Sequence record: MN850625.1
Direction: 5' to 3' (one strand)
DNA length: 41,110 nt
From: Escherichia phage smaasur
Numbering within the stretch: the stretch's first letter is position 1; each line of letters opens with the position of its first letter. Positions 560-41,110 of the stretch are shown in pieces. The notes beneath the pieces were generated by a model. It was not told where the DNA came from, did no database searches, and saw only the letters and a program-made list of their open reading frames with translations. The position numbers were made by a program, and so were the translations under genes.

Positions 560-3010
560 TTAAATTCTCCGAACCTTGTTATAGAACTTGACGTAATAAC
601 CTAAACCTTGAATGTTCAGGTCGCCTGCTGTAGTGGACGTGACCACCATGCTGCTGGACTCAACCTCCAGACCCATACGCACTTTGAGGTGCGCACGCTT
701 CGCCAGAGTTGCTGACTCCAGACCAAGCTCCTGACTCGTGTATCGAATCGGGCTGGAGATGATGTTCAGTGCAGAGTACGCCCCACGGTCACTGGCCGTG
801 ATAGTGAAGAGGCTCGTGTACCGCAACGTGAAGTTGTAGTGCATGATGACCATCTTGTTCACGTCCATGTACGAACCGTCGCCGTTGAAGATTCTCGGCG
901 GCGTAGGGCTGAACGTTGCAGTGAATCGCAGGCCCACATACAGCGACGTGCTGCCGTACGAGGGTTGCAGGTACACACGTCGGTTCGCAGTGTCGATGGA
1001 CTTGATACCAACCTCGGCACCGATGTACTGACCGGACGGCACAACCGTGGTCATAAAGTCCCAGTTGCCATCAGCCAGATACCGGGCTTGGATGATATCC
1101 CACAGCGCTTTCTGGATTCCGTCAGCCGCGAACTGGATGTACGAGTTGTCCGTCGCCGGGTTGGTCACAGTCATGAGCTGACTGTAATCCGTTGCCGGGA
1201 GGAAACGCGCTGGGTCAGTCGGGTCTGGAGAATCTCGCATGGACAGCGTAAGCATGTTCATGTGGCCGTTCTGCTCAACCAGCATCACCAGCACTTCACG
1301 GACGAACCATGCGGCGTGGATAGTGCCGTACAGCTCCCAGCGATGCCAAGACGACAACACCTTCTCATCGCCTGACCAGAGGTACTCGTTCACGTATAGC
1401 GTGGACTTCTCAGTGGTCGAGCCGAACACTACGATGTTGTTCGTGGTGCTGGCAGAGATGTAGCTGTTAGCCCCTTCCAGATAAGTCGGCAGGTGGTCGG
1501 TCACATCCTGACTCACGTACTGCAAATCCGTGTAACCGGACGGTAGCATCTCCTTGACGGAGAATGAGCTGTTCGAGCGCGGGTACGAATAATACAGGCT
1601 GCGGCCAGAGGTGGTCGGCGCTACGCCAGTGTCCATCTGGTACGTCGAGGTCAACACGGCGGTGGCGTTGTTCGGCGTGAGGATTTGGTTACGTCCGGGG
1701 ATGACTGCTTGGTGTTCCTCACTGGCCAGAATCAGGTCAGAGTTGAACGGCACCCCGTACCGGAACGAAGCCCCGGCGAAGCTGGATGCTGTGAACTCAA
1801 TGCGGTCATCGTCCAGCACCTGCGTAACAGTGGTGCGGAAGAAGTTGTTCCGGTCATCCTTGTTGCTGGAACCCATTGTGATGTACGGGCCACTGAATAC
1901 AATCAGGCGACCTTGGAACGAGGCCAAGCCAGTAATACCCACGCCATTAGCATCAGTGAATGCAGGGATGGAATTGGTCAGGTCATCGCCAGCCAAGCGG
2001 CCCGGCCAGCTACCCTGAGAGAAAGTGTGCTGGTTCGCGGTAGATGAGGTCTTGAACACCAACGGCATGGTGCTTGGGTTAATCCCGGTCGGGGAGCCGT
2101 AGGCACCTTTCTCAACCCAGCGTGAGTCATTGTAACTCCACTGGAAGTATTGAGCGAAGCTGGCGTCGCCCACAGTCATGATGAACCCACCCGCCGCCGC
2201 AGGCAATCTCGCCGGGAGCTTAGTGGTAAGGTCTACCGTGTGGGTGTTGGATGCAATGGCATAGCTTGAACCAGTCGAGGTAGATACGTTCATGTCGGCA
2301 GCAGCTTCGGTACACTGGATGTACAGGTACGCACCATCCTGTGCCACGACTTCTATACCCTCAGCCCCGCCTACGTGCGTGTCGAGCTGAGACTTGAGCT
2401 GACCGACGATGTACTCCGGCGTGGACTCTTGTGAAGGGTTGCCCGTTGTTGATGAGCTTTCCGGCGTAGTATACGTTGCACTCACTGCGCCCAACTTGGT
2501 CTGCACTCGCACGGTGAACTGCTTACCGTAAGCACCAGCGATAACAAAATAGTAACCCCGGCGACCCGGATTCATTCGCGTTTCGTTCTCGATTAGCACG
2601 GGCAGCTTGGAACAGTTGGCAACGTACATGGTGTTGCCTACGGTCGTGAATACAATGTCGTCGGGGTTATTTGCGATGAGATAATTCGACTGACCCATGA
2701 ACTGGACAGTCTCTGTCTCCACGATGGAGGTCACGTACCCAGTCTTCGTGTTAACGATGAACGTGGTAATCCCCCACCCTAAGTTAGTGGTGTAGAACCG
2801 GAGGTGGCCAAAATTTCCAAGGCTCCATACAGTCGCGTTGGTCGAACTTACGTCACGACTTAGGCGAGTGCCGGGGCGCTTGCGCAGGCCACGAACGGTA
2901 TCGGAGGTCATGTTGACCTGTTCCTCAACCTGCGATAGCTGTCGGTCAGTATAGACCTGCTGGCTTACGCCGCCGAGGATGGATTTATACGAGCCTTGGT
3001 AAACTGGCAT
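560..3010 (-). CDS. tail tubular protein B (T7 gp12-like)
   Basis: 816 aa. N-terminus SILGGVSQQ resembles recalled T7 gp12 NLKGGISQQ; internal matches VGDASFAQYF (T7 VGDASKSADQYY), YYSYPRSNSSFS (T7 YFASPRSSFTS), DHLPTYL (T7 SHVPNYI). Lies directly after tail tubular A with a TAATG overlap. Confidence 0.85.
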   Translation of the reverse strand: MPVYQGSYKSILGGVSQQVYTDRQLSQVEEQVNMTSDTVRGLRKRPGTRLSRDVSSTNATVWSLGNFGHLRFYTTNLGWGITTFIVNTKTGYVTSIVETETVQFMGQSNYLIANNPDDIVFTTVGNTMYVANCSKLPVLIENETRMNPGRRGYYFVIAGAYGKQFTVRVQTKLGAVSATYTTPESSSTTGNPSQESTPEYIVGQLKSQLDTHVGGAEGIEVVAQDGAYLYIQCTEAAADMNVSTSTGSSYAIASNTHTVDLTTKLPARLPAAAGGFIMTVGDASFAQYFQWSYNDSRWVEKGAYGSPTGINPSTMPLVFKTSSTANQHTFSQGSWPGRLAGDDLTNSIPAFTDANGVGITGLASFQGRLIVFSGPYITMGSSNKDDRNNFFRTTVTQVLDDDRIEFTASSFAGASFRYGVPFNSDLILASEEHQAVIPGRNQILTPNNATAVLTSTYQMDTGVAPTTSGRSLYYSYPRSNSSFSVKEMLPSGYTDLQYVSQDVTDHLPTYLEGANSYISASTTNNIVVFGSTTEKSTLYVNEYLWSGDEKVLSSWHRWELYGTIHAAWFVREVLVMLVEQNGHMNMLTLSMRDSPDPTDPARFLPATDYSQLMTVTNPATDNSYIQFAADGIQKALWDIIQARYLADGNWDFMTTVVPSGQYIGAEVGIKSIDTANRRVYLQPSYGSTSLYVGLRFTATFSPTPPRIFNGDGSYMDVNKMVIMHYNFTLRYTSLFTITASDRGAYSALNIISSPIRYTSQELGLESATLAKRAHLKVRMGLEVESSSMVVTSTTAGDLNIQGLGYYVKFYNKVRRI

Positions 3011-3558
3011 TATCCTCTCCGAGCACTCTCATAGCGCCACCAGCTCTGACGCTGGCGAGCATTGAATCGACGTTGACGGGTGTGGATAGACTGGCACTGC
3101 TGCAATGCGTTCGCATAGCCGCCAGTAACCGACACCGGGGGATTGTCTCCCATATCATCAGCATACGCAGAGATGGCTGCCTGATACGCAACCAGTCGCT
3201 GGACTGGACTTGGAAGGTCATCCCACTCAAGGTCATAAGTAACCAATCCCGGAACATCCTCAGTAAAAACAAAGGTTTGGGATTGGGCGTTGTAAAGATA
3301 CCCGCCTCGCACGATACACTCAAACCCATCCGGGATGAAGCTCAGTGCGTCTGCGGGGTATTTGACTCGACCATCCGACTCGCGTGGAATGGTGATTCGG
3401 ATGTTGTTGAACCACCAACCGTCAGTGAGAACCTCTTCCTGTGCGATGGCAATCTTGTCAAGGGCAAGAGTGACGGACGGGTTTCGAATCTCAGTCGAGG
3501 ATACGGTGTGCTCAGACAATGCCCGAAGAACGATGTTTACTGCTTCGAGTAGAGTCAC
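3010..3558 (-). CDS. tail tubular protein A (T7 gp11-like), probable GTG start
   Basis: 182 aa, between capsid and tail tubular B; size and position match T7 gp11 (196 aa). Start codon is GTG at 3558-3556, preceded by AGGAGACTTATC. Confidence 0.7.
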   Translation of the reverse strand: MTLLEAVNIVLRALSEHTVSSTEIRNPSVTLALDKIAIAQEEVLTDGWWFNNIRITIPRESDGRVKYPADALSFIPDGFECIVRGGYLYNAQSQTFVFTEDVPGLVTYDLEWDDLPSPVQRLVAYQAAISAYADDMGDNPPVSVTGGYANALQQCQSIHTRQRRFNARQRQSWWRYESARRG

Positions 3559-3608: not shown

Positions 3609-3618
3609 GAGTTTGCCA

Positions 3619-4611
3619 TTAGGCTTCGGTGGTAACGACACCCACCACGTCAGGACGCTTCTGACCCACAGTGTACATGTGGAAGCTATCCAGAACGTTG
3701 GTCATCTCTTTCTCGTCATCCCATACGCGGTTGAACAGCGGCTGGGCTTCGACGGTAACGAGAGCCAGAGACGGGTCGAACACAATCAGCTTACGCTTGA
3801 TTTCGTCGGCAGTGACGTTGAAGTCGGCACCGAGCAGGTGGTCGGTGATTGCAGCCTGCGGGAAAGCATTGCTCTCAATCAGGCGAATACCGTTGACGTA
3901 CGCAACACGGCGCATTGCGAAGTCGTTCACACCACGGCCACCAGTGAACTCAACGTTCATCAGTTTCTTGTGCTCCAGCAGGATGCTGAACCACGCCGGG
4001 TCAATCAGCGTAACCAGACGGCCAAGGTCAGCATCGCGGCGAATGAACGCTTCGATAACTTTCTTGTGGCCATGCACGATTGCGCTTGCGTCGTCTTCTT
4101 CGGAAGCGACGGTGCCAGTCAGCGTAATCTTCTCTTTGATACCAGCGTTGAATGCGCCAGCCAGAGAAGTCGGAGGCACGAAGTCAGCGCACTTCTGGAG
4201 CTGAATTACGTGCGCTTGGTCGAACGCCTTAGCCTGTGCAGTACCCATGTTACGGGTCAGCTCAGCACGGAAGTCCGGCGCAGTCCAGTCATCCTGATAG
4301 TCAATCGGGATACGGATGTAAGACACGGTATCCACAGTGACAATCAGCTTCTCGGAGCGCACTGGCTGGTTAACCAGAGACTCGCCGGACTTACGACCTT
4401 TCACGGTCACGCTGCCGAGGCGGTCGCCACGCCAAGTGTTGGACTGGTTAGCCACGGACTTGAAGTTGGTCAGACCGGAACGGAAGATGGAGTTGTAAAT
4501 AAACTGGGTCTGCACGTCACGGTCATACACCTCAAGGTGAATGTCGTTGTCAGAGTTCGCGCCACCCCAGTGTGGACGGAACTGGTTCGGGGTATAGGAG
4601 TTAGCTGCCAT
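3619..4611 (-). CDS. major capsid protein
   Basis: 330 aa, directly downstream of the scaffold gene and upstream of tail tubular A. Has an AAGGA ribosome-binding site and is followed by a hairpin. Size fits T7-like HK97-fold capsid proteins. Call is positional plus size. Confidence 0.8.
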   Translation of the reverse strand: MAANSYTPNQFRPHWGGANSDNDIHLEVYDRDVQTQFIYNSIFRSGLTNFKSVANQSNTWRGDRLGSVTVKGRKSGESLVNQPVRSEKLIVTVDTVSYIRIPIDYQDDWTAPDFRAELTRNMGTAQAKAFDQAHVIQLQKCADFVPPTSLAGAFNAGIKEKITLTGTVASEEDDASAIVHGHKKVIEAFIRRDADLGRLVTLIDPAWFSILLEHKKLMNVEFTGGRGVNDFAMRRVAYVNGIRLIESNAFPQAAITDHLLGADFNVTADEIKRKLIVFDPSLALVTVEAQPLFNRVWDDEKEMTNVLDSFHMYTVGQKRPDVVGVVTTEA

Positions 4612-4634
4612 ATACGAAAATCCTTAGAAAGAAA

Positions 4635-5855
4635 TTAGTAGCCCATAGCCTTGGCTTGACGACGCTTCTCTACCAGCTCTTGGTAGTGACGGTTGTATTC
4701 CGGGGAACCAACCGGGTGCGCCTGCTCAAGCCAGCCAAGATGCTGACGGAAAGCCTCATTGGTCATCACCTCTTGAGGTGCTTGGCCGCCACCATTGGGC
4801 GTCAAACTCTGACCACTACGTTGAATCAGATTGCCTTGGGCACCAGTGAACTGGAGGATGGTGTTCACTGCCAGACGTACCTGATTCGGGTCGCCTGAGT
4901 TCACTGCTGCTACGACAGCATCGATAGTTGCAGGGTCTGCTGCGGTGTTGAATGCCTGTACTGCGAGGTTCCAACGCTGCTCGCCACCAGCCATCTGGTA
5001 CACCTGCTGCTCAATCTGCGCATCGCGCTGCTGCCCTGCTGCTACCAGCGCACCGAACTGTCCTTTCAGGATAGCTACGGTCTGCGGGTCGAACTGCGCA
5101 AGGTAACGGTCGTTCACCAAGGTCGGGTCGCGTCGCTCGTAAGCCTGACCGAACGCTGCAAGCAGGTCGATGTTCTGGCCACGGGCGATGGTATCCATGC
5201 CTTGGAATACTGCCTGACTGGTTTGGTCAGGGAAAATCTGTGCAACCTGCTCCGGCGTTAAACCTCCTTCCTGCTTAGCCAGCTTGTCAGCAGTGAGCTG
5301 CTGGTTCTGGATAGGCGGCTGCTGCTGCGGCTGCAACTGCTGGAAAGGTTGAGTCTGCTGCTGCGGCTGCTGAGGCTGCTGCTGATGCTGGCCCGGCTGA
5401 TGACCATACGGGTCGAAAGCATACGGCTGCGGTGCTACAGGCTGCTGGAACTGCTGAGCCGGAGCCGCTTGGCCCGGAGGCGTGTAGCCCTGTTGCGGAT
5501 ACCCATTAACCGGAATAGGTGGTGCCGCGTATGGCGACTGCGGTTGCTGAGAACCATACGGGTTCTGCTGAGGTACGGGTGCGTAAGGGCTTGGATTTCC
5601 CTGCGACTGGTTGGCATACGGGTTGTACTCCTGATTTGGAATCAGGCCCGGCTGCGCGAAAGGCTGCTGAGGCTGCGGAGTTGCGCCGCCGCGAGGCAGT
5701 TCAATCGGCGTACCTAAGCGACCAAGCGCTGGGTTCTGTACCACCTGTGGGCTTCCACCATAATCATTACCGCTGTGACCAGAGGGAGCATAGGTCGGGC
5801 CAGCGGGTACGTTTTGGGGAGCGGGTGCGGCAGTAGGTTGGTATTCACCTGACAT
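4635..5855 (-). CDS. scaffolding protein with a long Pro/Gln-rich low-complexity N-terminal region
   Basis: 406 aa between portal and capsid, the T7 gp9 slot. The first ~200 aa are extremely P/Q/Y/G-rich; the C-terminal half is ordinary composition. Confidence 0.6.
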   Translation of the reverse strand: MSGEYQPTAAPAPQNVPAGPTYAPSGHSGNDYGGSPQVVQNPALGRLGTPIELPRGGATPQPQQPFAQPGLIPNQEYNPYANQSQGNPSPYAPVPQQNPYGSQQPQSPYAAPPIPVNGYPQQGYTPPGQAAPAQQFQQPVAPQPYAFDPYGHQPGQHQQQPQQPQQQTQPFQQLQPQQQPPIQNQQLTADKLAKQEGGLTPEQVAQIFPDQTSQAVFQGMDTIARGQNIDLLAAFGQAYERRDPTLVNDRYLAQFDPQTVAILKGQFGALVAAGQQRDAQIEQQVYQMAGGEQRWNLAVQAFNTAADPATIDAVVAAVNSGDPNQVRLAVNTILQFTGAQGNLIQRSGQSLTPNGGGQAPQEVMTNEAFRQHLGWLEQAHPVGSPEYNRHYQELVEKRRQAKAMGY

Positions 5856-5865
5856 GTAATCTCCA

Positions 5866-7428
5866 TTAAATCTGTGCGACGTTCGGCGCTACATCGACTG
5901 CGCCCGGCTGTACGCCTGCGGCAGCGGCTGCTGCATTGTCGATGGCACGGCCTTCATTGGCCAAGTCTTGTGGTGACTTACGATAGTCATCCAGCGCGAC
6001 GCCGTTGGAAGCGAAGATAACCTCAAGGACTTTCTGTGGGTCGATGGTGTTAGCAACGCCGTTGATGTTCTGGACAGCAACCATTGCTGCCTGCGAATCT
6101 GAGAGCGCACGGATGAGCGTCTCTGCTTCGATACTGCGACCGAGGGCATCCAGACCTGCTTCGACTTGAAGGGATAGGATGTTGCCAACGATATCGGGTA
6201 CGGTGGACTCGTCAATCTCCGCGAGCAAGACGTACGCCAGAGGAATCTGGAGGGTCTTCGCCTGCATGGAATACGGGCCACCCAACCCGCGTTCGGCGCT
6301 GGTTGCTACCTGCTGCACTTCGGTTGCGGTGGTACGTTCGGAATCACGGAACTCACCAGTGTACATGAACGCCTGCGCGAGTCGCTGCACAATCTGGTTA
6401 ATTTCGTCACGAGCCTGTTGGACTTTCTGGTAATCCCCGACCTCCAGCCCCTCAAGTTGGGTGCCGGACTGTAGCGGAACCACCTGACCAGTCTCTGCGG
6501 ATTCGATATCGTCAGCGTTGCCGCCTGAGCCAGTCAGCTTCCACAGCACGCGCAAGGCTTCTTGCATGTACAGGGCACTGTGCTCACTCAGCATCGACAG
6601 ACGTGCGAAATCCCCAGCGTGGTCTTCGACAATCCCGCGACCATAATGCTCGCCAGACTTCAAAGACCACACTGGGAAAATCCAAGGGCAGACTTTTTCA
6701 GGGTAGTAATCCTTACCGGGGGTATAAACACAGCCTTGGTAGTTGCCCACCTGCTGCGTCACTTCATAGCCAAAGTTGTTCTGGCGCGGTACACGCTTGA
6801 CGCGAGTGTACAGCCAAATGCGTTTGTTGCCGCTGCAACGGAATCCCTTAGCTTCGAGCTGCTTCTGGAACTCCATAGGCAACGAATCCCACTGGATGCG
6901 CTCCTTGACGATTGCGTCCGTTACAACGCCACGACCGTCGCGCTGCACCACGAAGGATTCCAGACCGTACACACGGTACGTTCCAGTTTCCATATCGCGG
7001 TACAGCGCGGCGTTACCAGTCACGGCTTGCTGGGCAATACATTGGAGCAGGTCGGCATAACCACCGTTCTCTTTGGCTTTATCAACGATGGCTTTCTCAA
7101 TAGTGATGAGTGCCTGATTGACTTGCGACAGTTGCTGCCGCTGCTGTTCAGACACCTTGTTAAGTTTCAGCTTCACGAAACGAGCAGAAGCCGGGAACAG
7201 GAACTCGCCCAATCGAGCAACGAGGTTGTTGACGAGCAGAGCGCCGACAGATTGATAGTCACGAGTAATCTGCTGGCGGTTCATATCGTCCGTGTCAGCT
7301 CGGTCATACTCGCTCACCAGCTTAGCCAGTGTATAGCGGCTGTACTCACGAGCCTTCGTCACAACGTTGCTGTCCCGGTATTTCTGCCACAGAGACTCAT
7401 AGCTGACGTTCTGCGCGTCTTGGGTCAT
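5866..7428 (-). CDS. portal (head-tail connector) protein, T7 gp8-like
   Basis: 520 aa. Contains YRVYGLESFVVQRDGRGVV resembling recalled T7 gp8 YRLSSYVVQRDAFGNVL, and VEAGLDALGRS resembling T7 ISTGLEAIGRGQ. Directly upstream of the scaffold gene. Confidence 0.9.
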   Translation of the reverse strand: MTQDAQNVSYESLWQKYRDSNVVTKAREYSRYTLAKLVSEYDRADTDDMNRQQITRDYQSVGALLVNNLVARLGEFLFPASARFVKLKLNKVSEQQRQQLSQVNQALITIEKAIVDKAKENGGYADLLQCIAQQAVTGNAALYRDMETGTYRVYGLESFVVQRDGRGVVTDAIVKERIQWDSLPMEFQKQLEAKGFRCSGNKRIWLYTRVKRVPRQNNFGYEVTQQVGNYQGCVYTPGKDYYPEKVCPWIFPVWSLKSGEHYGRGIVEDHAGDFARLSMLSEHSALYMQEALRVLWKLTGSGGNADDIESAETGQVVPLQSGTQLEGLEVGDYQKVQQARDEINQIVQRLAQAFMYTGEFRDSERTTATEVQQVATSAERGLGGPYSMQAKTLQIPLAYVLLAEIDESTVPDIVGNILSLQVEAGLDALGRSIEAETLIRALSDSQAAMVAVQNINGVANTIDPQKVLEVIFASNGVALDDYRKSPQDLANEGRAIDNAAAAAAGVQPGAVDVAPNVAQI

Positions 7429-7431
7429 ACG

Positions 7432-7692
7432 TTAACTCCCAATGCCGAGGTTGCTTGCTACACCCGTTCCGGTGCGGCGGCGTCGGCCCGACAGAGTATC
7501 GGAGGCAGAGCTAACCTGACCACCGGACTGAATCGTTGGGGTGTTATCGTTCGACAAGTCGGCTGCGAGGTTGGCCTGCATAGCCTGAGCCTTCACCTGC
7601 GCCGGGTCGGTCTTGATAGTGTACTTCGGGGCTTGGCTACCCAGTCCGAAGACAGAGCCAATACCTTTGAAAACTTTACCTACGCTACCCAT
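7432..7692 (-). CDS. small Gly-rich basic protein immediately upstream of portal (possibly gp7.3-like virion protein)
   Basis: 86 aa. C-terminus SGRRRRTGTGVASNLGIGS resembles my recollection of the T7 gp7.3 C-terminus; position before portal matches. Recollection-based. Confidence 0.4.
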   Translation of the reverse strand: MGSVGKVFKGIGSVFGLGSQAPKYTIKTDPAQVKAQAMQANLAADLSNDNTPTIQSGGQVSSASDTLSGRRRRTGTGVASNLGIGS

Positions 7693-8111
7693 TACGGTTT
7701 CTCCAAATCAATGAATCGGTACTCCTGAACATAAGGACGTACCATGTGGGAGTAACCGCACCAGCGCAACCCAGCTTGCCGGGCAGCGCGTTTGAGTTCG
7801 CGGAGGATGAGACGGGTCACTCCCCGGTTGCGATACTGGGGCCATACATACATGGCCATTACAACGGCGCACGGCCCCACATGAATATCGAACAGCTCAC
7901 CGAGATGAGCACAGCCCATGAGAGCACCGTCAGAATCATGGACGTACACATCTGTGCATCCGTTGGCGGTGGCATCATACATGGCGTCCACTATCACATC
8001 CCACGGTAAATCAGACCATTGGCGTTCATCCTGTATACCTTTGGCTACAGCAGTCCGAATGTCGATTGGCATCGTGGTGTGATGTATGTTGTCCACAACA
8101 GTTACTTTCAT
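7692..8111 (-). CDS. GNAT-family N-acetyltransferase (putative)
   Basis: 139 aa. AVVMAMYVWPQYRNRGVTRLILRELKRAARQAGL fits the GNAT beta4-alpha3 acetyl-CoA-binding pattern. Start ATG sits inside the repeated element ATGAAAGTAACTGTTGTG. Overlaps the upstream small gene by 1 nt (TAATG). Confidence 0.5.
   Translation of the reverse strand: MKVTVVDNIHHTTMPIDIRTAVAKGIQDERQWSDLPWDVIVDAMYDATANGCTDVYVHDSDGALMGCAHLGELFDIHVGPCAVVMAMYVWPQYRNRGVTRLILRELKRAARQAGLRWCGYSHMVRPYVQEYRFIDLEKP
8097..8111 (-). repeat. repeated element ATGAAAGTAACTGTT (copy 1, at the GNAT start codon)
   Basis: Exact 15-mer on the minus strand; extends to 18 nt (ATGAAAGTAACTGTTGTG, 8094-8111) shared with copy 4. Confidence 0.6.
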
Positions 8112-8293
8112 TACACAGTCCTTTCACGGATGAAGTCCAACACGTCCTGTTTACCCGCTTCTCTGTTCAGTAGTGAGATATCTGATTCATGGGTGATGGT
8201 CTTCCCTACCTTCTCCCATGTACCGAATGCCTTCTCTAAGAGAGCTAGTTGTCCTTTGTTGAACGTCACTCTGTCTAATGGTGAGTCTTTCAT
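8111..8293 (-). CDS. small protein (60 aa from MKDSPL), translationally coupled to the downstream GNAT gene
   Basis: ORF track gives 8111..8311; the internal ATG at 8293 has a GGAGA ribosome-binding site, so I start it there. Predicted short beta-strand followed by helix (RVTFNKGQLALLEKAF). Confidence 0.4.
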   Translation of the reverse strand: MKDSPLDRVTFNKGQLALLEKAFGTWEKVGKTITHESDISLLNREAGKQDVLDFIRERTV

Positions 8294-8336
8294 AGAGAAT
8301 CTCCAATGCACTACGAGAGTAATCTGGGTATACCAG

Positions 8337-8351
8337 AACAGTTACTTTCAT
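8337..8351 (-). repeat. repeated element ATGAAAGTAACTGTT (copy 2, just downstream of the RNA polymerase gene)
   Basis: Exact 15-mer on the minus strand, 26 nt downstream of the RNAP stop and 44 nt upstream of the ATG at 8293. Confidence 0.6.
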
Positions 8352-8376
8352 TAAGTGCAAGAAATATAAGACTAAA

Positions 8377-10809
8377 TTAGCAGAAGAATTTGGAGGATTT
8401 CTTGACCTCGTTGATATCCAACTGGCCCCGTGCTGGAGCTTCCTTAGAATATCTCACGGCAAGTTGTTGAATCGGGTCATTTTCCTCGTACATCTGCACG
8501 AATTTTTCACGGATGACTTTGTGCAGTAGACCTGCATGAGCTGCTGCAACACCGAACGAGTCATGAATGGATACCATGTACACCCCGTTATTCCACATCT
8601 CCCACAGGACTTTCGTCATGTGGCTGGCATCCATCGCATGTACAAAATTCGGAGCAATCGCAGCCGCGCATTTGCGACCGTCTGGCTTGTCGATGAACTC
8701 ACGCAGCTTGATGGCATGAACGCCCATCAGCTTGATACCCATAGTGGTCTCTTTGTGAGCCTGATACATGTTCACCACACGCAGACCAGACGGGGCAGTG
8801 AACTCCACATACTCACCGTTAGCCGCCGCCTCAGATGCGATAGCTTGCAGCCATGCCATCAGCTCAGCAGCCTTTGGCACCACGCGAGGAATTGCATCCC
8901 ACATGAACCCGGCGATGTACATTGCGCACTGGAACAGGGTGTACCCTTCCGGTAGCGGAGTGTTGTGCTCCCGTAAATACAGCGCATAGTAATCCACCAT
9001 GCCGTGGCGTGTCGCACCGTACACATAAGTCATCACAGGCTTCTTAGCCATACCGCGCTCTATGCCAGTCTGTATGAGCCACGAACCCAAGACAGTAGGG
9101 TTGGTTGCCTCTGCTTCCTTCAACGCCTCCAGAGCCGCCGTAGCGGTCTTAACGTAGATGTCTGCCTTACGTCCTACTGAATCAATCAGGTTAACCGCAG
9201 CCCCGCCCACCTCGTCACGCAGCATTGCTGAGAGATGTTGCAGACCTGAGCACGTCGCGTCCCACTGTGTCACCACACGGCACGGATACTCTTCCGGGTT
9301 CCCGCTATCCAGCGCACGCACCAGCTCTACCGCAGCCGCCCATGCACACAGTGGGCTGTCAGCCTCAGACCAGAATGAGTCGTATGCCTCTGGCAGACGG
9401 CAAGCCTCGCGCAGTCGCGGCATTGTCTTGTCCGTCCATGCCGCCCGGTCTTCAAAGTCTGTGGAGTCATAGCCGAAGCAGTTGGCCACATGAACCTTCA
9501 ACCAGAACAGACCCTCCTTACCAAGCGGCACCGGGTCAGCCAGCTCAAGCAAAGCACGAATCGCGTCAATGCCTTGCGGGTTCAGGGATGTGGCATAGTA
9601 GCAACGGCCACGAGTGTCGGCGTATGTCGGCAGGTAGATTCGCTCGTACACTTTGTACTGCTCAGCCTCACGCAGCGCACTGCTCAGCGCCTGAATCTGC
9701 GTGGTGAACTTCTTCATGTCGTTGTGGTAAATGCGAGTCTTAACCTTGAACTCGTGCGCCTCAGCGTCCATGCGCTGCTGCATCTCAGCCGGGAACTTGC
9801 TGATGTACTGGCCGAACGTTACGCCTTCCGGGATAGTGAACGGCAGCTTAGGCTCCACTGGAGCAACAGGCAACCCCATCACCCCGGTTCTGTTGGCTTG
9901 TAAGAACTCCAGCACCATCTTGTTCACGCGGAACGGAACGTTTGACAGCATCATGCACGGCTCAATCATCGGTCGTGGGTCAATACCTAACTTGCGATAC
10001 GCCGGGTGCTTGAGCTTGCTGATTACCGCATACGTTGCCGCCTGCCCCGGAGAGTGCCACATACCGCCAAAGCCATTCGCACTGATTTGAGCTGGCGGTA
10101 TAATCAGCGGCGGGTAGCAACTGATGCCGAGGTGTGGCAGCTTCATCCAATCCTCAAGCATGATGAGCACATCGTCATGCAGAGCGAAGTGCGCAGTCGC
10201 CCGGTTCTTCAAGCTACCGCCCACTCGGACAGTCTTGACCAGACCAGTCGGCTCGACAGCACGCATCATCAACTTGCCGATTGTGATGAGCGCACGCTGT
10301 GGCAGGCTTTCAATCTCGACACCAACATTTGCCGAGGCAGCGCGTGCCTTGTTGTAGATGTGGTTTGGCGACTTAGACTTGGACTTATTCACGTCGCGGC
10401 GAACCCTCTCCATATACGCAGCCTCACGCTTACCAGCCCGCTCAGCTCGTGCATAGACTACCTCAGCCATCATTGCCTGCCCCATCTCGCGGAGCAGTTG
10501 AGTCACGGCGGTACGCCCGGTCGCGCCGGACACCGCCATGCTCAGGGCCAGAGACGCGCAGGTCTTGGCCCCGACTTCACGAAGGTACGTGCGGTACTGC
10601 GCACCGAACCCACGAGTAGTTTCGTTCAGGATATCCAGCATTGCAGCTTCGACAGTGGGGTATGCCTCAACCATCGCTCGCTGCAACAGTGGCACCGCCG
10701 AGGCGCGGCCTGAGTCTATCGCATCTCGTACGTTATCTAACCAGCCTGCCCGGTGACGGGCACGCGCCTCTTCTTCCAGTCGAATCTGTTCTGCCAGCAA
10801 ATCCATCAC
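8377..10809 (-). CDS. T7-like single-subunit DNA-directed RNA polymerase
   Basis: 810 aa. [20 protein letters not shown] matches T7 RNAP motif A region [32 protein letters not shown]...SIHDSFG matches T7 motif C region PNFVHSQDGSHL...IHDSFGT. Confidence 0.95.
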   Translation of the reverse strand: [810 protein letters not shown]

Positions 10810-26837: not shown

Positions 26838-27369
26838 AGTTATTTCTCCAGTTATTGGCTATTTTCAGGTGGATAGTGAACCCATTGTGACGCGCCGTAC
26901 AGTCTGCACTCAGTGGCATTGATTGGCTTGTCGGATTCACTACCCTGAAAAATCGCCCCGCCCATTTCGCGCTGTGGATATTGTCTGCATCCACTCTCAG
27001 GAGTCTTCCAGCAGTCCGTCGCGTATCTTGCTCACCGTTGCCAGCTAACAAGCCGTTTGACTACCCACCCGCTATACTCCGCGCCTTATAAGACGTTCGG
27101 GATTGTACTGATACTGCGCTGCGTCTATCGCGCTTCTCCGTTCCCATGCACCGGGCGCTACCCCTATTGCCTTTCGGCGGTGCCTCACCCAGTTCCAACC
27201 TGCGGCGGATACCCAGTGAGCCGTGACACTACGCGGCCAGTTTGCGTTCACTCAGAGCAGGATGCTTTCCATCCTTTCAACTCGGTGCTGATTTCATCAT
27301 ATCTGAATCAGCTTGTCAACTACTTTTTACTTCTGACTGACTGGCTTGCTACCCGTCAATCTGGAGCGT

Positions 27370-27398
27370 ATTACAGCATACTCATTTCACCTTGTCAA
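27370..27398 (-). promoter_or_regulatory. candidate host sigma70 early promoter (minus strand TTGACA-17-TGTAAT)
   Basis: On the minus strand: TTGACA (plus 27393-27398), exact 17-nt spacer, TGTAAT (plus 27370-27375). Points toward the early genes. Confidence 0.5.
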
Positions 27399-27506
27399 CC
27401 GTTTTATTCAGCGCCCATTCTGAGATGAATAACCCGTACCAGTTCGCCTGCGTGTGTTTTAACGTCTTTATCAATGACTGTTTAGCTTGCTGGCTGACGT
27501 GGAAGC

Positions 27507-27535
27507 ATTACAGCATAGTGAGCTTGCCTTGTCAA
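27507..27535 (-). promoter_or_regulatory. candidate host sigma70 early promoter (minus strand TTGACA-17-TGTAAT), second copy
   Basis: Same architecture: TTGACA (plus 27530-27535), 17-nt spacer, TGTAAT (plus 27507-27512). A weaker third candidate is TTGACA (27313-27318) with TGAAAT (27290-27295). Confidence 0.5.
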
Positions 27536-27779
27536 TACACTCCAGATTGTTAAAGAGCATGGCTAACCGTCTAGCCCACCGTGTAACGATGTTCTGTTAC
27601 CCGGCGATGAGAATTACAGCAAATCACAAAGAGCATTGCAAGTATTATTTTCACTGAATACCTCAAATAGTGGATAAGTTATTGTATTCATTGATAATAA
27701 ATATTTGATTGAATAGGTTATTGCATAGCTTACATACAGCAGAATAACCGTAAATAAATCCTTTTAAATCAATGAGTAA

Positions 27780-27794
27780 ATGAAAGTAACTGTT
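27780..27794 (+). repeat. repeated element ATGAAAGTAACTGTT (copy 4, inverted, at the edge of the T-depleted terminus tract)
   Basis: Exact 15-mer on the plus strand, opposite to all genes; 18-nt identity with copy 1 (ATGAAAGTAACTGTTGTG). Sits at the junction between an AT-rich segment (27640-27780) and the T-depleted tract. Confidence 0.6.
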
Positions 27795-27799
27795 GTGTA

Positions 27800-28380
27800 T
27801 AGCAGTAGCGATACGCAGCGTAAGCGACGCAGCACGCAGTGCGATAGCGGAGCGCGGAGCGGAGCGAATGAGATACGGAGTAGCGAATGAGTGAACGCGA
27901 ACGGATAGCAAGTATCAGAGTGTTACACAGTACACACAGCAGACACACAGCGACGCGATGAGCTGGAGGAGCTGGAGCGCAGGCGGTAGCGCACAGAGTA
28001 CACCGTACACAGTACCGCACAGACACACACAGCAAGCGAGCGCAGGCAGCAGCAGCAACGCACAGAGCAAGCGAGCAAAAGAGATAGATAGCCCCGCGCC
28101 CAGCCACCGACACACAGCAGCACCGCACAGCACAGCGCAGGCCAGCGCAGGCGCGTCCAGTGGTAGCAGTGGCGCAGCGCACAGCAGCAGGACACAGCAC
28201 CGCACAGCACGCCACACGGCAGACGATGAAACGGGCACGCGCGAGCTGTTACCGCACGCACGCGAGCAATACCGCACGCGCAGGCACACGCGCATAATGC
28301 GCACACGTCATGCACGCGCACGCGCACAGGCGTACGGGGGCGCAGGCGCTCCTTCGGGTCGAGGGAGGCCCACGCACAAA
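27800..28380. repeat. strongly T-depleted, degenerate short-repeat tract at the presumed genome terminus
   Basis: Plus strand is almost entirely A/C/G with reiterated CACAG/GCGCAG/CAGCAC units; my hand count gives about 8% T over 27841-28380, and 28021-28080 has none. Lies between the last late gene (endolysin, ends 28435) and the early promoters, where T7-like phages carry terminal repeats and short-repeat arrays. Confidence 0.6.
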
Positions 28381-30693: not shown

Positions 30694-32453
30694 TAGCGGA
30701 TTCTCCGACGAGTGCCACGGACACGCTTATGACTGCGCCACTTCGAGTCGTCGTACCCCATAGGGTTGGCAACAAACTCACGAGCGGCGGCCACTTCACG
30801 CTTTTGGGCCTCTTCATGTTCGTCTTGCTGGAGTACCTCGGCGTGGAGATACACGGCAGCGGATAGGGTTTCAATGCGGTCATCGTGCGGGATGGAGCCT
30901 TTGTCCTGCGTCAAGTTCTGCATCTGCCAGAACAGGCTGTATTCCCGGCCACCGTTGTTCATGGCCCGGCACAGGCGCAGGTCTTCCTCAACAACCGACC
31001 AGTGGATTACCACGCGGTGGCGCTGGAGGATAGGACTCAACCGATTGATGATACGCACTTCTTTCTGGCCGCTGGAGTAAATACCCTCACAGCCGATTGT
31101 CAGTCCTTGACGCTTAATCTCACCACGGTACATGTTGGTCACGGCACCGTGGCCCATGTTGTCCTCAATGGTGATGTGCTGGACACCCAGCTCGTGGCAC
31201 CACTCTACCGCCGCCTTGATGTTCTCTTCCGTCTGGCCGCCGTGGTAGACGTGCATACCGATGACGTGGATAAACGGGCCGATAGAAGCTGTGGCGAAGA
31301 GAACGGATTCGTCCGACCCACCACCAGCAGGGTCAAGAAACGCCTTGGTATTCGTGAATGGTACATACGTCTCAGAGAAGTCAGCGGCCAGATATAGCTG
31401 GGCGCGAGCGAGTGGGAAGTCCATTGGCAGCTCGGCCAAGTGACGCGAATGATTCGACCAGTGCAGATACTCCGGCGCAGACTGCGGCGAGCCGTGGAAG
31501 AAGATAACATCCCGGATATGCAGAGTCTGTTTCAGTGCGTCTGACAGTGATGTGTCCAGCATGAACTGTAGCTGGAAGCCTGCCTGCTGGTAGTCTCGTT
31601 CGTTCTGTAGCTGCTTCTCTTCGGAGTAACGCTGAGGGTCAGTCTGCGCACCACGGTTCCCAAGGATACCGTAACCAGTACGCAATTCAGGGTGGCCATC
31701 CATCTTCTGCTTAATCCACGGGGCCAGACAGCCGCCGTAGCGTTCTTCTTCCTCAACCGTTGGGAAACGACCGGGCCAGATGCGAACGTCGAAGCCACGC
31801 TGCGGGAGCGTGTTGTAGATGGAGTCCTGAGTCTGTGGCGTGCCGAGGTACAGAATCTCTGCACCGTCGTTGGCGATAGCCGCGAACTCTTTGGTCAGGG
31901 TGTTGATACGGGCGCGGTTGGCAGGAGAGCTACCGTTACTGGTAGTCTCCACGTCATCGGCAATCAACAGCGATACGTGGTTCCCCTGCAACTGGCCGAA
32001 GATACCGACCGCTTTGACAGAGGGCTGTTTGTCAGGAATACGAAATGCGTGGTGTACGTCGAAACCGTCTGTATAAGAGGTACGTGCGCCAGCGCGAGTT
32101 TCAGGGCGCAGCCATTCCAGTCTGTCCCATTGCATAATGGCAGACACGATGGCGTGCGAGAGCGTACCCGCATAATCGTCAGAACCGGATACCAGCAGCA
32201 CGGTGGCGTTAGGCATCTGGACGAACTCATACAGGGCACGGGCAATGCCGATGGTGGACTTAGCCTCACCGCGCTGAGCCATGACGCACTTGTTCTTGAG
32301 CGTCCGGTCGGCCATGTAGCGGCCAATATCGAGCTGCATTTCAGTGAGGTCAAAGCCCAGCCATGCGAAGTAGTCATGCAGGAACAGCGGGAAGTTGTTC
32401 TCGTAATGGGCGCGAACAATTCCTGCCATCACCATGCGGCGTTGTAAATCCAT
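30693..32453 (-). CDS. terminase large subunit (T7 gp19-like)
   Basis: 586 aa, the same length as T7 gp19. [26 protein letters not shown] matches T7 [45 protein letters not shown] matches [32 protein letters not shown] matches ALAHDDRLDALALGI. Confidence 0.95.
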   Translation of the reverse strand: [586 protein letters not shown]

Positions 32454-32743
32454 TAGTGCATCATCCCGCTATCTTCTGCAATTGCTTTGATGGCAGAGTC
32501 CATGATGGACTTCCGCTCCGTATCCGACTTCTCTTTGTTGAGCTGCTCTTGCAGCGCCAGCAGGTCGTCGGCGTGGTCAGCATCTGCTTGGATGCCATTG
32601 TCTTTCAGGAACTGGCGAAGTACCGACAGCTCGGCTGCTGGCATTGGCTCGTTACCGGGCTTCATGCACTCAGACAGCCGAGTGGTCAGATACTCAACCA
32701 GCATCCGGTGCAGCCCATCGAGCTGCTTATTCACGGATGCCAT
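32453..32743 (-). CDS. terminase small subunit (T7 gp18-like)
   Basis: 96 aa helical protein immediately upstream of and overlapping the terminase large subunit start; T7 gp18 is 89 aa. Confidence 0.6.
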   Translation of the reverse strand: MASVNKQLDGLHRMLVEYLTTRLSECMKPGNEPMPAAELSVLRQFLKDNGIQADADHADDLLALQEQLNKEKSDTERKSIMDSAIKAIAEDSGMMH

Positions 32744-32752
32744 GATTACTCC

Positions 32753-35137
32753 TTAGATGAATGCGACCGGGTACGTGGCGGCGAGCTGAGTACCTGCCGG
32801 AATCGCAGTTACGATTGCCGGACTGATATCAATCCGCACCGGGTTCCCGATGTTGTTGTCTACCTGATACGGCGCTCGCGTCACAGTGACCGTAAGCGTA
32901 CCGCCACTTGGCCCAGCGCCCGGAATGTTCAGGCGAGTACCAGCAGAGATAGGCTTATGATACAGCCACGAGGTCGAGGCTTGAGTACCTTTCGGGGTCA
33001 GGTTCTGCTCCAGATACGTCTGGCCAGCGGCAGCAGCACGCACCTTGAAGTTGTTGCCGTCATTCGGGATGTAGGCACCGAACCGGGTCACAATGAAGTT
33101 ACCACCCGTGCCGTCCGTCTTGAACAGTACCGTACCTTCGCAGAACTCTTTACCAGTAGGGAACTCCCCACCAGTCAGGGTTGCGAGGTCGTTCGGCAGT
33201 GTGTACATGCGGTTGACCGGAGACAGGATAACGCCGACGTTGCCTTGGATGTTAGTGTACGGAATAGCACGTACGTTGGAGTTCAGCGTACTGATATCCG
33301 AGTAGCGAGCTTTACTGTACAGGGCACCCTCGGTGTTGCCGGGGCCGTAGAAGTTCACGTTCACCATGTTCAGGCAGGTCTTGCGTCGCGGGTACACGCC
33401 GTTGGAGGACGTACCGCCGCTGGAGTCATCGCCTACACAGTCGAAGTCAACACCCGTCACGTTGGTCATGTTCAGGAGTGTGGCCACACCAAAGAGGCTC
33501 AGACGGTAGCAGTGGATGTTCTCAAGGTGGTACACGTTGGTGTTCACATCATCGGAGCCAACACCAGCGTAGACACGCCCGGTCTTGGTGTAGATGTTGC
33601 GCAGCGTCATGTTGAACGATGGGTTGGATGCACCCGGCACGCCACCAGCACCAGCTTGGTTAGAACCCCACTCGCACATGACAAGACGTACCGCAGCCGG
33701 GTCAGTACCAGTGCTGCCAACGATAGGCTCACCGTACACGCCGTCAATGACAATATCCTTGCAGCCGTAGGTGATAACGCCAGCAGCCGTCAGACCTGTG
33801 CCGTTGGAAACAGTCAGGTCAGGGTTGGCATGTACGTCGTACACCGTGCAGTTCTTGGACACCTCGAAGTGGATAACCTGACGCACCCCACGCGGAGCAT
33901 GGACACCACGGACTGTGATGTTCTTCGCGTATTGGGTTTCAGCAGCATCCCAGCCAAACGGCCCTTGACCAGCCAGACCAATCCCGATACCCCAGTTGGA
34001 TACGAAGGATGGGTTGGAGGTTGGGTTGATACCGTTGATATTTTCGAGGTAGATGTTCTCAATCGACAGGCCACCATCATAGTGCTTGTTGATTACGTTC
34101 ATCTCAATGCCGTCGCCAGCCATATCCATCAGGGCGATGTTGCGAATCACACCGTTGTCAATGGTCTCGCCAGTACCCTGCTGGAGAATGCCGAAGTAAC
34201 CATTACGGTGTACTCCGTTCTCGATGACATAGCTGCCCCCGGCGATGTTACCTTGGAACAGGATGCTGGCAACTTTCGATGCCGAAGGGTGGTCAGTGAA
34301 CTCGTAGTCAGCAATGCGCACATTGCCGCCCCAGTAGCAGACACGAACCTTTGATGCAGAGAAGTTGCGGAACGTAGCATTCAGCAGACGGATATCCGCT
34401 GTACCGTTCCACGTACCGCCGACAACCTCAATGCCGTCCATAGTGATGGTGGAGTTCACAGTGCCTTCCCAACCGCGAGCGTCCACAACCTTGTTGTTGG
34501 CTTTGGCGTAGTCGAAGCAGGCTTGGCACGCAGCGGCAATAGAGGCGTAGCCAGTGTTGTTGGTGAACTCAGACAGGCAGACGGTATCCTGACGGTCGAG
34601 GAACGTGCCACCGCCGAGAGTACCAATCCACTTACCGCCGTCATTCATCGCCAGCGCGATGGCCAGCGCAGAGTCAGGAATATCGACCAGCGGCACCATG
34701 AAGGGTTGGCCATTGCTGTCGAAGCCCAGCGCCTTGTTACGGCGGCCTGCGACGTTAGGCAGTGCGTTGATTGACACCTCAGAGTTTGGTACGCGCAGGG
34801 CGCGGTCAAGCGGAGCCAGCCATGCTTCCTGCGTCTCTTCTGCCTTGAAGAGAATCTGCTCAAAGTTCTCGTCGAGGTTGCTGCCAGTGAATGCAGCGTC
34901 CTGACCGAACTTGTTCAGCAGCACTTCTGAGGTGTACCGTTGGAGTCGGACAATCACCCCGGCGAGCGGGGCGGTGTCAAATACGATTTGCTTGGTCACG
35001 GAGTTGTAGGTGTACCCGCTCGTCTGGAGTTCGGAGTTAAGGTACACCTGAATCTGCGTGAACACTCGTTGTTCAAAGGTGACAAGGAACGCGGTCTGCG
35101 TTCCGTTTGCCACGTATGCGTTGTAGCTATTGGCCAT
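32753..35137 (-). CDS. tailspike: T7 gp17-like N-terminal anchor fused to a right-handed beta-helix (pectate-lyase-like) depolymerase domain
   Basis: 794 aa. N-terminal ~120 aa follow the T7 tail-fibre anchor pattern. Central region is rich in Gly/Asn/Val/Thr repeats typical of parallel beta-helix polysaccharide depolymerases. Follows the internal virion proteins. Confidence 0.7.
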   Translation of the reverse strand: MANSYNAYVANGTQTAFLVTFEQRVFTQIQVYLNSELQTSGYTYNSVTKQIVFDTAPLAGVIVRLQRYTSEVLLNKFGQDAAFTGSNLDENFEQILFKAEETQEAWLAPLDRALRVPNSEVSINALPNVAGRRNKALGFDSNGQPFMVPLVDIPDSALAIALAMNDGGKWIGTLGGGTFLDRQDTVCLSEFTNNTGYASIAAACQACFDYAKANNKVVDARGWEGTVNSTITMDGIEVVGGTWNGTADIRLLNATFRNFSASKVRVCYWGGNVRIADYEFTDHPSASKVASILFQGNIAGGSYVIENGVHRNGYFGILQQGTGETIDNGVIRNIALMDMAGDGIEMNVINKHYDGGLSIENIYLENINGINPTSNPSFVSNWGIGIGLAGQGPFGWDAAETQYAKNITVRGVHAPRGVRQVIHFEVSKNCTVYDVHANPDLTVSNGTGLTAAGVITYGCKDIVIDGVYGEPIVGSTGTDPAAVRLVMCEWGSNQAGAGGVPGASNPSFNMTLRNIYTKTGRVYAGVGSDDVNTNVYHLENIHCYRLSLFGVATLLNMTNVTGVDFDCVGDDSSGGTSSNGVYPRRKTCLNMVNVNFYGPGNTEGALYSKARYSDISTLNSNVRAIPYTNIQGNVGVILSPVNRMYTLPNDLATLTGGEFPTGKEFCEGTVLFKTDGTGGNFIVTRFGAYIPNDGNNFKVRAAAAGQTYLEQNLTPKGTQASTSWLYHKPISAGTRLNIPGAGPSGGTLTVTVTRAPYQVDNNIGNPVRIDISPAIVTAIPAGTQLAATYPVAFI

Positions 35138-40931: not shown

Positions 40932-40933
40932 GA

Positions 40934-41110
40934 TTAGCTCCCAAAGATGTTACCAGAGCCATAACCCAAGTAACGATTAGAATCATACTGCGCTGGCACA
41001 GGGTTAAATTCCCCGGCCTTCTGCATCCAATTGGTGGTGCTGTAACTGGCAGACGTTCCGAGATTGTCGAACGTCGATGCTGTAGCACCTGAGCCACCAG
41101 TCGTACCAGC
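40934..41110 (-). CDS. C-terminal end of an upstream virion protein gene (gene begins beyond window end)
   Basis: In-frame minus-strand reading with no stop from 41110 to the TAA at 40934-40936 (...NRYLGYGSGNIFGS*). Probably the small internal virion protein; may be the same gene whose 5' end is at 1-558 if the source contig is circularly permuted. Confidence 0.4.
   Translation of the reverse strand, partial: AGTTGGSGATASTFDNLGTSASYSTTNWMQKAGEFNPVPAQYDSNRYLGYGSGNIFGS

Follow-up and report, generated by a model that had tools for sequence, protein, structure and literature searches.

The head scaffolding protein gene of Escherichia phage smaasur (genus Bonnellvirus; sequence record MN850625.1) raises the question of what a scaffold does with an N-terminal half of some 200 residues that is made largely of glutamine and proline. 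The gene lies at positions 4635..5855 of the window, by which we mean the whole stretch of 41,110 nucleotides that was analysed, and is read from the minus strand as an open reading frame (ORF) of 1,221 nt that begins with ATG, ends with a stop codon at 4635-4637 and encodes 406 amino acids. Based on the comparisons described below, we consider that this half of the protein is probably a flexible arm that makes multivalent contacts within the procapsid, a judgement that applies to the class of mechanism.

By its gene slot, its profile matches and its predicted fold, the product is a head scaffolding protein of the T7/phiKMV type. It is 100% identical to the deposited smaasur scaffolding protein, and it matches its own PHROG, phrog_36307, over the full length (E 1e-239). 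The neighbour upstream on the coding strand is the portal gene (5866..7428, minus; PF12236, E 5e-49; phrog_449), while the downstream neighbour is the major head protein gene (3619..4611, minus; phrog_267), and T7 and 15 related loci share this order of portal, scaffold and capsid on one strand. The general phiKMV-type scaffold family, phrog_1018, aligns with residues 153-405 (E 7e-16), and phrog_1052, the family of T7 gp9, aligns with residues 157-334 (E 2.4e-6); at E ≤ 0.01 the protein is not detected by PF05396, the Pfam model specific to T7. A Foldseek search of the AlphaFold2 (AF2) model against BFVD returned 19 annotated phiKMV-like scaffold or capsid-assembly proteins at E < 0.01.

The first-pass annotation, made from the letters of the DNA, had described a Pro/Gln-rich N-terminal half of about 200 residues joined to a normal C-terminal half in the scaffold slot, and both the composition and the neighbouring genes bear this out. 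On the grounds of composition, the AF2 model and substitution rates, we delimit a Pro/Gln/Tyr-rich arm, predicted to be disordered, at residues 1-195 (5271..5855, minus). It consists of 23.1% Q, 21.0% P, 9.7% A, 9.2% G, 6.2% Y, 5% N and 4% S, with 5.1% charged and 8% aromatic residues, a net charge of -2 and a mean Kyte-Doolittle hydropathy of -1.14. Its Shannon entropy is 3.44 bits, as compared to 3.94 bits for the C-terminal half, the 211 residues of which are of ordinary composition. In its top 100-residue window, P and Q together reach 58%, against 20% for the runner-up protein in the genome and proteome means of 4.4% P and 4.9% Q; the tract is thus far above chance composition and the only extreme one in this genome. 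The description of the region as low-complexity applies to the arm overall, but not as a uniform property, since the near-homopolymeric stretch is limited to residues ~141-180 and complexity elsewhere in the arm is not uniformly low. The run QQQPQQPQQQTQPFQQLQPQQQPP is found at residues 158-182. As the sole tandem repeat in the near-homopolymeric stretch, Tandem Repeats Finder (TRF) reported an imperfect (CAG)12 at 5355-5390 with 75% matches; the coding sequence otherwise yielded a 2.2-copy 9-mer.

Several lines of sequence evidence indicate that the Pro/Gln tract is translated, and the true start downstream of it, which the first-pass annotation had named as fatal to its own reading, finds no place in the data. 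A Shine-Dalgarno sequence, GGAG at 5861..5864 on the minus strand, stands 5 nt upstream of the ATG (5855-5853) and just past the portal stop codon (5866-5868), and this arrangement is kept in nine of nine relatives, including Pantoea phage LIMEzero, which belongs to a different genus. The only other in-frame start-type codons among the first 240 are GTG38, TTG174 and ATG220, none of which has a Shine-Dalgarno sequence, and ATG220 sits within the conserved folded domain. The frame is open across 10 phage genes and 17 database proteins, with every length difference in-frame. Comparison of codons 1-65 with those of phage usur gives 0, 0 and 11 differences at codon positions 1, 2 and 3, respectively. 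The ratio of nonsynonymous to synonymous substitution rates (dN/dS) is 0.22-0.43 for the arm and 0.07-0.10 for the C-terminal half (residues 196-406), placing the arm, as far as these sequences tell, under purifying selection that is weaker than that on the core. Moreover, the scaffold gene has no megablast match in the DNA of LIMEzero, yet the peptide motifs of the arm are recognisable there. We also rejected the idea that translation from within the gene yields a short isoform, given the lack of a Shine-Dalgarno sequence before any internal start-type codon.

The first-pass annotation had suggested comparing the length and sequence of the region among related phages, and this comparison revealed localised indels and conserved motifs. 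An alignment of 17 sequences, extending down to 49% identity, contains a short motif, SPQVVQNPALGRLGTPIELP, at residues 35-54 (5694..5753, minus), in which V39, N41, P42, A43, L44, G45 and P54 are invariant. Further along the arm, P62, N78, P79, Y80, P90, Q96, P99, P108, P113, Q135 and P149 are also invariant. Residues 77-151 (5403..5627, minus) form an array of aromatic motifs, namely NPY, SPY, NPYG, SP(Y/F)AAPP, NG(Y/F), PPGQAAP and PA(Y/F)xF(N/D)PYG. An aromatic residue stands at each of the positions Y80, Y91, Y100, Y109, Y119, Y145, F147 and Y150 in 88% or more of the sequences, and successive conserved aromatics are spaced 9-11 residues apart from 80 to 119.

Traces of these motifs reach beyond the close relatives. 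A HMMER search with the C-terminal domain alone retrieved 185 cluster representatives of the scaffold family, 156 of which have a usable N-terminal region. A hidden Markov model (HMM) of the clade motif (residues 34-56) gave no significant match to the distant representatives (best E 0.39), and related motifs in distant scaffolds surfaced only through simpler regular expressions combined with shuffle controls. The expression QxPG[FWY]V occurs in 30-32 of 138 distant scaffold arms, where the shuffle mean is 0.6-1.5, and [NS]P[AM]L[GS]x[LVMA][GSAT], as in NPMLSHLS, occurs in 9 of the 138, where the shuffle mean is 0.01; the narrower form NP[AM]L[GS]x[LV][GS] is enriched over shuffles as well. 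In addition, PGFVGNPAP of the closest outgroup aligns with PQVVQNPAL of the clade. Because of this outgroup counterpart and the motifs of the distant scaffolds, the invariant motif of the clade appears to be a local variant of a more ancient motif of these arms.

The AF2 model, which is a prediction and not a solved structure, was built on the same alignment. It places no secondary structure at residues 1-36 and 51-198, where the predicted local distance difference test (pLDDT) score is below 50. Within the arm, secondary structure appears only at residues 38-52, which hold the invariant VVQNPALGRLGTP motif, and there the pLDDT is just ~51. Helices span residues 201-346 with pLDDT values of 70-85, outlining a domain at ~200-340; together with the phrog_1018 and phrog_1052 matches and the low dN/dS, this defines the core domain of the scaffold, which is helical and conserved and comprises residues 187-340 (4836..5297, minus). 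A Gly-rich flexible loop follows at residues 341-361 (4773..4835, minus), with pLDDT below 50 and a sequence that is nevertheless conserved. The protein ends in a helix-turn-helix at residues 366-403 (4647..4760, minus), composed of helices 366-379 and 385-403 with a pLDDT of ~80, the last helix being basic. By analogy with P22 gp8 and T7 gp9 (10.1101/2022.12.13.520362), this C-terminal element is presumably the coat-binding module.

Length variation is concentrated in one portion of the arm, the hypervariable poly-Gln/Pro linker at residues 151-186 (5298..5405, minus), which includes the imperfect (CAG)12 found by TRF, gathers the indels and shows the lowest nucleotide identity of the gene. 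In five clusters whose members share 90% identity or more, the full-length proteins measure 404-410, 408-410, 409-411, 401-416 and 395-397 amino acids. Within these clusters nearly all indels fall at residues ~151-176, span 1-16 amino acids and are in-frame, with a minor site at 61-67, and the remaining ~150 residues of the arm are almost constant in length. The proposal that the region is prone to length variation by slippage therefore appears to hold for the linker, where the indels are small and in-frame, but not for the rest of the arm.

The arm also bears marks of recombination. Two alleles, AQQFQQPVAPQPYAFDPYG and AQQPGLAPNNPAYGFNPYG, occur at residues ~133-151 (5403..5459); both retain the aromatic motif, and their distribution among Bonnellviruses does not follow that of the remaining gene sequence, the phage altidsur, for example, carrying the smaasur-type allele within a usur-like gene. 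Judged from the sequences, this distribution indicates recombination inside the disordered arm. At four-fold degenerate sites, smaasur and usur differ at a fraction of 0.23 in the arm-coding half versus 0.54 in the core-coding half (p = 7.5e-5), and other pairs behave similarly. Nucleotides 29-118 of the scaffold gene (5738..5827) are 100% identical in smaasur, usur and altidsur, with flanks at 84-98%. The low synonymous divergence could be caused by recent recombination, by codon or translation constraints, or by a feature at the RNA level.

We favour the reading of a multivalent binding arm because predicted disorder coincides with purifying selection, with an invariant motif of the docking type and with aromatic residues that are quasi-periodic between positions 80 and 119. 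In this proposal, the C-terminal core (~187-406), which is shared with phiKMV-type scaffolds and remotely with T7 gp9, would be the coat-binding and shell-templating part, and its helix-turn-helix end would bind the capsid protein on its inner face. The NPALG motif (V-x-NPALG-x-L...P, residues 38-54) would dock on a conserved folded partner, for which the portal, the internal core or ejection proteins, the capsid protein and the scaffold core are candidates. The (N/S)P(Y/F) array would supply many weak contacts, leading to scaffold clustering and shell nucleation. The Gln/Pro linker (151-186) would join the arm to the folded core and only set its reach, and would for that reason tolerate slippage indels. 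In P22, a helix-turn-helix at the C-terminus of gp8 binds coat, and its disordered N-terminus, which is mobile in procapsids, is required for scaffold exit and for the incorporation of ejection proteins (10.1101/539965; 10.1101/2022.12.13.520362). With this precedent, the most likely mechanism is one in which the NPALG motif would dock on the portal/core complex or on the capsid protein, helped by weak aromatic contacts that would cluster scaffold molecules. Here we infer the binding partners and the clustering behaviour from what is established, namely translation, predicted disorder, purifying selection, motif conservation and the localisation of the indels.

A number of points weigh against this reading. 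The dN/dS of the arm is 3-4 times that of the core, a difference between aligned sequences which implies that much of the arm is loosely constrained. The evenness of all 16 arm aromatics is not significant (coefficient of variation 0.71 versus 0.88 under the null, P = 0.16), and motif conservation is partly inflated by the composition of the Pro/Gln-rich alignment. Searches of the PDB with the family profile, with the AF2 model (Foldseek) and with T7 gp9 itself found no related chain. Furthermore, a recent cryogenic electron microscopy (cryo-EM) study of a phiKMV-like phage reported a scaffold that was neither visible nor modelled (10.1101/2026.05.18.726046).

The alternative that survives best is condensate-driven assembly, in which the arm would behave as a chain of stickers and spacers, with Tyr and Phe driving a homotypic, liquid-like clustering of scaffold that concentrates capsid protein and nucleates procapsids. 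The first-pass annotation had pointed this way in calling the region prion-like or condensate-prone. Its composition indeed resembles that of phase-separating low-complexity domains, with low charge and abundant Q, G and aromatic residues, and the aromatic positions are kept while the spacers drift; the clade is also richer in aromatics than the family as a whole. Condensates can, as simulations indicate, make the assembly of capsids faster (PMC12392740, cited in PMC13185644). The term prion-like is apt insofar as the arm is polar, rich in Q, N, G, S and Y and poor in charged residues, but it fits poorly with a proline content of 21% in residues 1-195, which is unlike that of known prion-forming domains. 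On prion-propensity scales, amyloid-type prion formation needs low proline. The lack of significant evenness among the aromatics counts against the alternative too, and strict invariance, as seen in NPALG, is a mark of motifs that dock on folded partners more than of cohesion driven by composition. Most arms of the family are, moreover, nearly devoid of aromatics, and the mechanism cannot be a family-wide one. Taken from the alignments, the invariant short motifs point to specific binding at least as strongly as to phase-separation-like assembly, and we regard the condensate explanation as unlikely.

The arm could also be an inert spacer or entropic filler, giving volume or reach with no specific contacts, its composition being the product of tolerated drift and slippage. 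An arm dN/dS above that of the core, the indels and recombinant alleles within the arm, and family arm lengths that vary from about 35 to 200 amino acids would all be expected of such a filler. However, its motifs are invariant across sequences that are only 49% identical, its length is nearly fixed outside residues 151-176, the motifs it has in common with distant scaffolds occur far above the shuffle expectation, and its dN/dS is well below 1. We therefore consider the spacer explanation quite unlikely. The remaining alternative, that the tract is an untranslated leader with the true start downstream, as some annotations assume, is highly improbable on the sequence comparisons: although several database gene calls begin inside the tract (277, 305, 368 and 372 amino acids) and the annotation of Cronobacter phage RZ4 takes Met135 as the start, none of these internal Met codons is conserved (smaasur has Gln at the position of the RZ4 Met135), an open and conserved frame lies upstream of each such start, and the third-position bias, a dN/dS below 0.45 and the LIMEzero motifs that persist as protein all contradict it.

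Those calls show the practical side of the matter, in that the low-complexity tract misleads gene callers and annotation pipelines into internal starts. The 305-residue call, a JGI gene call of a relative, is truncated, and the full arm is open upstream of it, starting right after the portal gene. One close relative bears the label 'Vesicle coat complex COPII, subunit SEC24' in one source. For several relatives the entry reads hypothetical protein of Enterobacter or E. coli, on contigs of ~42 kb that probably represent phage genomes contained in bacterial assemblies.

How far the arm is peculiar to these phages can be judged from the 156 family representatives with usable N-terminal regions. 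The median arm of the family is 84 amino acids long and contains 20% Pro, 10.5% Gln, 2% aromatic and 9% charged residues, whereas the arms of the Bonnellvirus/Waewaevirus clade, the longest of all, measure 165-200 amino acids, with 18-24% Pro, 18-38% Gln, 7-9% aromatic and 1-5% charged residues. P and Q together reach at least 30% in the arms of 97 of the 156. As judged from these sequences, a Pro-rich arm is the norm in the phiKMV-type branch, and the Bonnellvirus/Waewaevirus clade is its long, Gln- and aromatic-rich, uncharged extreme. The statement that such a region is unusual for T7-type scaffolds accordingly holds for size and chemistry, but not for the existence of a low-complexity arm, which is Pro(/Gln)-rich in those 97 representatives and acidic in T7 gp9.

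The nearest counterparts are gp39 of LIMEzero and the other Bonnellvirus/Waewaevirus scaffolds (PHROG 36307), which occupy the same gene slot, are 387-411 amino acids long and are 73% identical to the smaasur scaffold in their C-terminal half. Their arms, like that of smaasur, carry VVQNPALG, NPY, QQNPYG, SPFAAPP, PPGQAAP and FNPY. Unlike smaasur, LIMEzero gp39 lacks the first ~26 residues, is still richer in Gln (38%) and differs in the length and sequence of the linker. The annotators of Escherichia phage J8-65 had found the resemblance to LIMEzero gp39 to be confined to the C-terminal half. The phiKMV-type scaffolds (PHROG 1018), such as gp31 of Pseudomonas phage LKD16, have a homologous helical C-terminal domain (25-30% identity by tblastn). 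The first 120 residues of LKD16 gp31 contain 28% P and 16% Q and look disordered by composition, the SnaR1 arm is also Pro-rich, and some phiKMV-type arms carry related short motifs. These arms differ from that of smaasur in being about half as long, with few aromatics, more charged residues and no multiplied NP(Y/F) array.

T7 gp9 (PHROG 1052, PF05396) occupies the same slot between portal and capsid, and its central and C-terminal helical region is remotely homologous. A comparison of the two families by hhalign was weak (E 0.002-0.007, probability 5-15%) and produced no N-terminal alignment; because of these scores, the homology rests on the phrog_1052 match. While the arm of T7 gp9 is also of low complexity, it is acidic, with 19% E, 9% D and a net charge of -37 over 150 residues, whereas the smaasur arm is neutral. 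The best conserved part of the T7 gp9 family is its first ~45 residues, which contain FGVN(S/P)AV, EHEQNMLALDVAARDGDD and then DP(F/Y)G. To the eye, though not by HMM or hhalign comparison, FGVN(S/P)AV and DP(F/Y)G resemble NPALG and NPYG, a suggestive lead. One ancestral arm motif may run across the Autographivirales.

P22 gp8 has no detectable sequence relationship to the smaasur scaffold, and its N-terminus is ~40 residues long and negatively charged, as compared to an uncharged arm of 195 residues in smaasur. The smaasur arm shares with a P22-type acidic exit segment the disordered N-terminus, according to AF2, but not the high net negative charge. With an arm that lacks charge, the charge-repulsion model put forward for the exit of acidic scaffold termini is inapplicable, and repulsion by the incoming DNA cannot be the exit mechanism of the smaasur arm. 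Disordered multivalent organisers are known from other systems, such as CsoS2 of the alpha-carboxysome, the FG-nucleoporins and wheat gliadins with their PQQPF repeats. In these proteins, short repeated aromatic or binding motifs lie in Gln/Pro-rich disordered spacers, and many weak contacts organise shells or cohesive phases. The likeness to smaasur is one of composition and architecture only, the proteins are not homologous, and there is no evidence that the smaasur arm bridges shell and cargo or gels.

That the protein is deposited and named as a scaffolding protein is already known, as is the existence of disordered N-terminal arms in scaffolds. Searches of the literature on J8-65, the '-sur' phages, LIMEzero and the phiKMV-type scaffolds turned up no account of the arm, of its motifs or of its distribution, and they yielded neither proteomic nor genetic data on any Bonnellvirus. 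The arm is an exaggeration of a family trait, being neutral, Pro/Gln/Tyr-rich and doubled in length, and more is gained from the conserved motifs, which open scaffold-partner interactions in T7-like phages to direct tests. The scaffolds of T7- and phiKMV-like phages are essential for head assembly yet structurally almost invisible. A translated and selected arm with an invariant motif thus provides concrete targets for mutagenesis, with respect to portal and core recruitment, self-association and exit from the shell. A neutral, aromatic-rich arm, set against the acidic arms of T7 and P22, also bears directly on the notion that scaffold is driven out by its negative charge while the DNA is packaged. 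A bolder combination would be that the arm is a true condensate-former, with Bonnellvirus/Waewaevirus procapsids nucleating in droplets through NP(Y/F) stickers, and that V-x-NP-A-L-G, diverged in phiKMV-type and perhaps T7-type scaffolds, is the long-sought docking site for the portal/core. We consider this conjunction distinctly improbable; if true, the docking site would be the first handle, defined by sequence, on the placing of a single portal vertex by T7-like scaffolds.

The first-pass annotation had further described the tract as CAG/CCG-rich and as a source of spurious plus-strand ORFs, which the codon counts and the unconserved ORF lengths corroborate. Glutamine is encoded by CAG in 39 of 45 codons (CAG:CAA 39:6), and proline mostly by CCG or CCT (CCG in 18 of 41), the codon usage for both residues being mixed. 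Because these codons are CAG/CCG-rich, the antisense strand reads CTG/CGG and hence stays open. Two by-product ORFs arise on the plus strand, one of 122 amino acids with 52% Leu+Arg (5349..5717) and a second of 105 amino acids (5519..5836), and the stop-free length of neither is conserved in relatives. Hidden overlapping genes were considered and rejected, as the alternative sense and antisense frames are open through the CAG/CCG content and vary in length among relatives.

The genome as a whole holds 49 ORFs, all on the minus strand as read, and is 93.5% coding. The region is 98% identical at the nucleotide level to J8-65, of the genus Bonnellvirus; for the Danish '-sur' phages and for relatives from Kosakonia, Pantoea and Cronobacter, all of them Bonnellvirus, the identity is ~86%. 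The tail tubular protein A gene (3010..3558; PF17212) also lies downstream of the scaffold gene. Very long plus-strand ORFs lie opposite real genes at 32363..34354 (663 amino acids), 6562..7728 (388), 3613..4638 (341) and 39729..40937 (402), and the portal and major capsid protein genes are among those that they face. These long antisense ORFs elsewhere in the genome are most likely by-products of codon bias at a guanine-plus-cytosine (GC) content of 55%. The GC content dips locally at 8001..9000 (0.487) and 27001..28000 (0.479), as compared to ~0.55-0.58 elsewhere, and the GC skew shifts near 8 kb and 30 kb, despite all genes sharing one strand.

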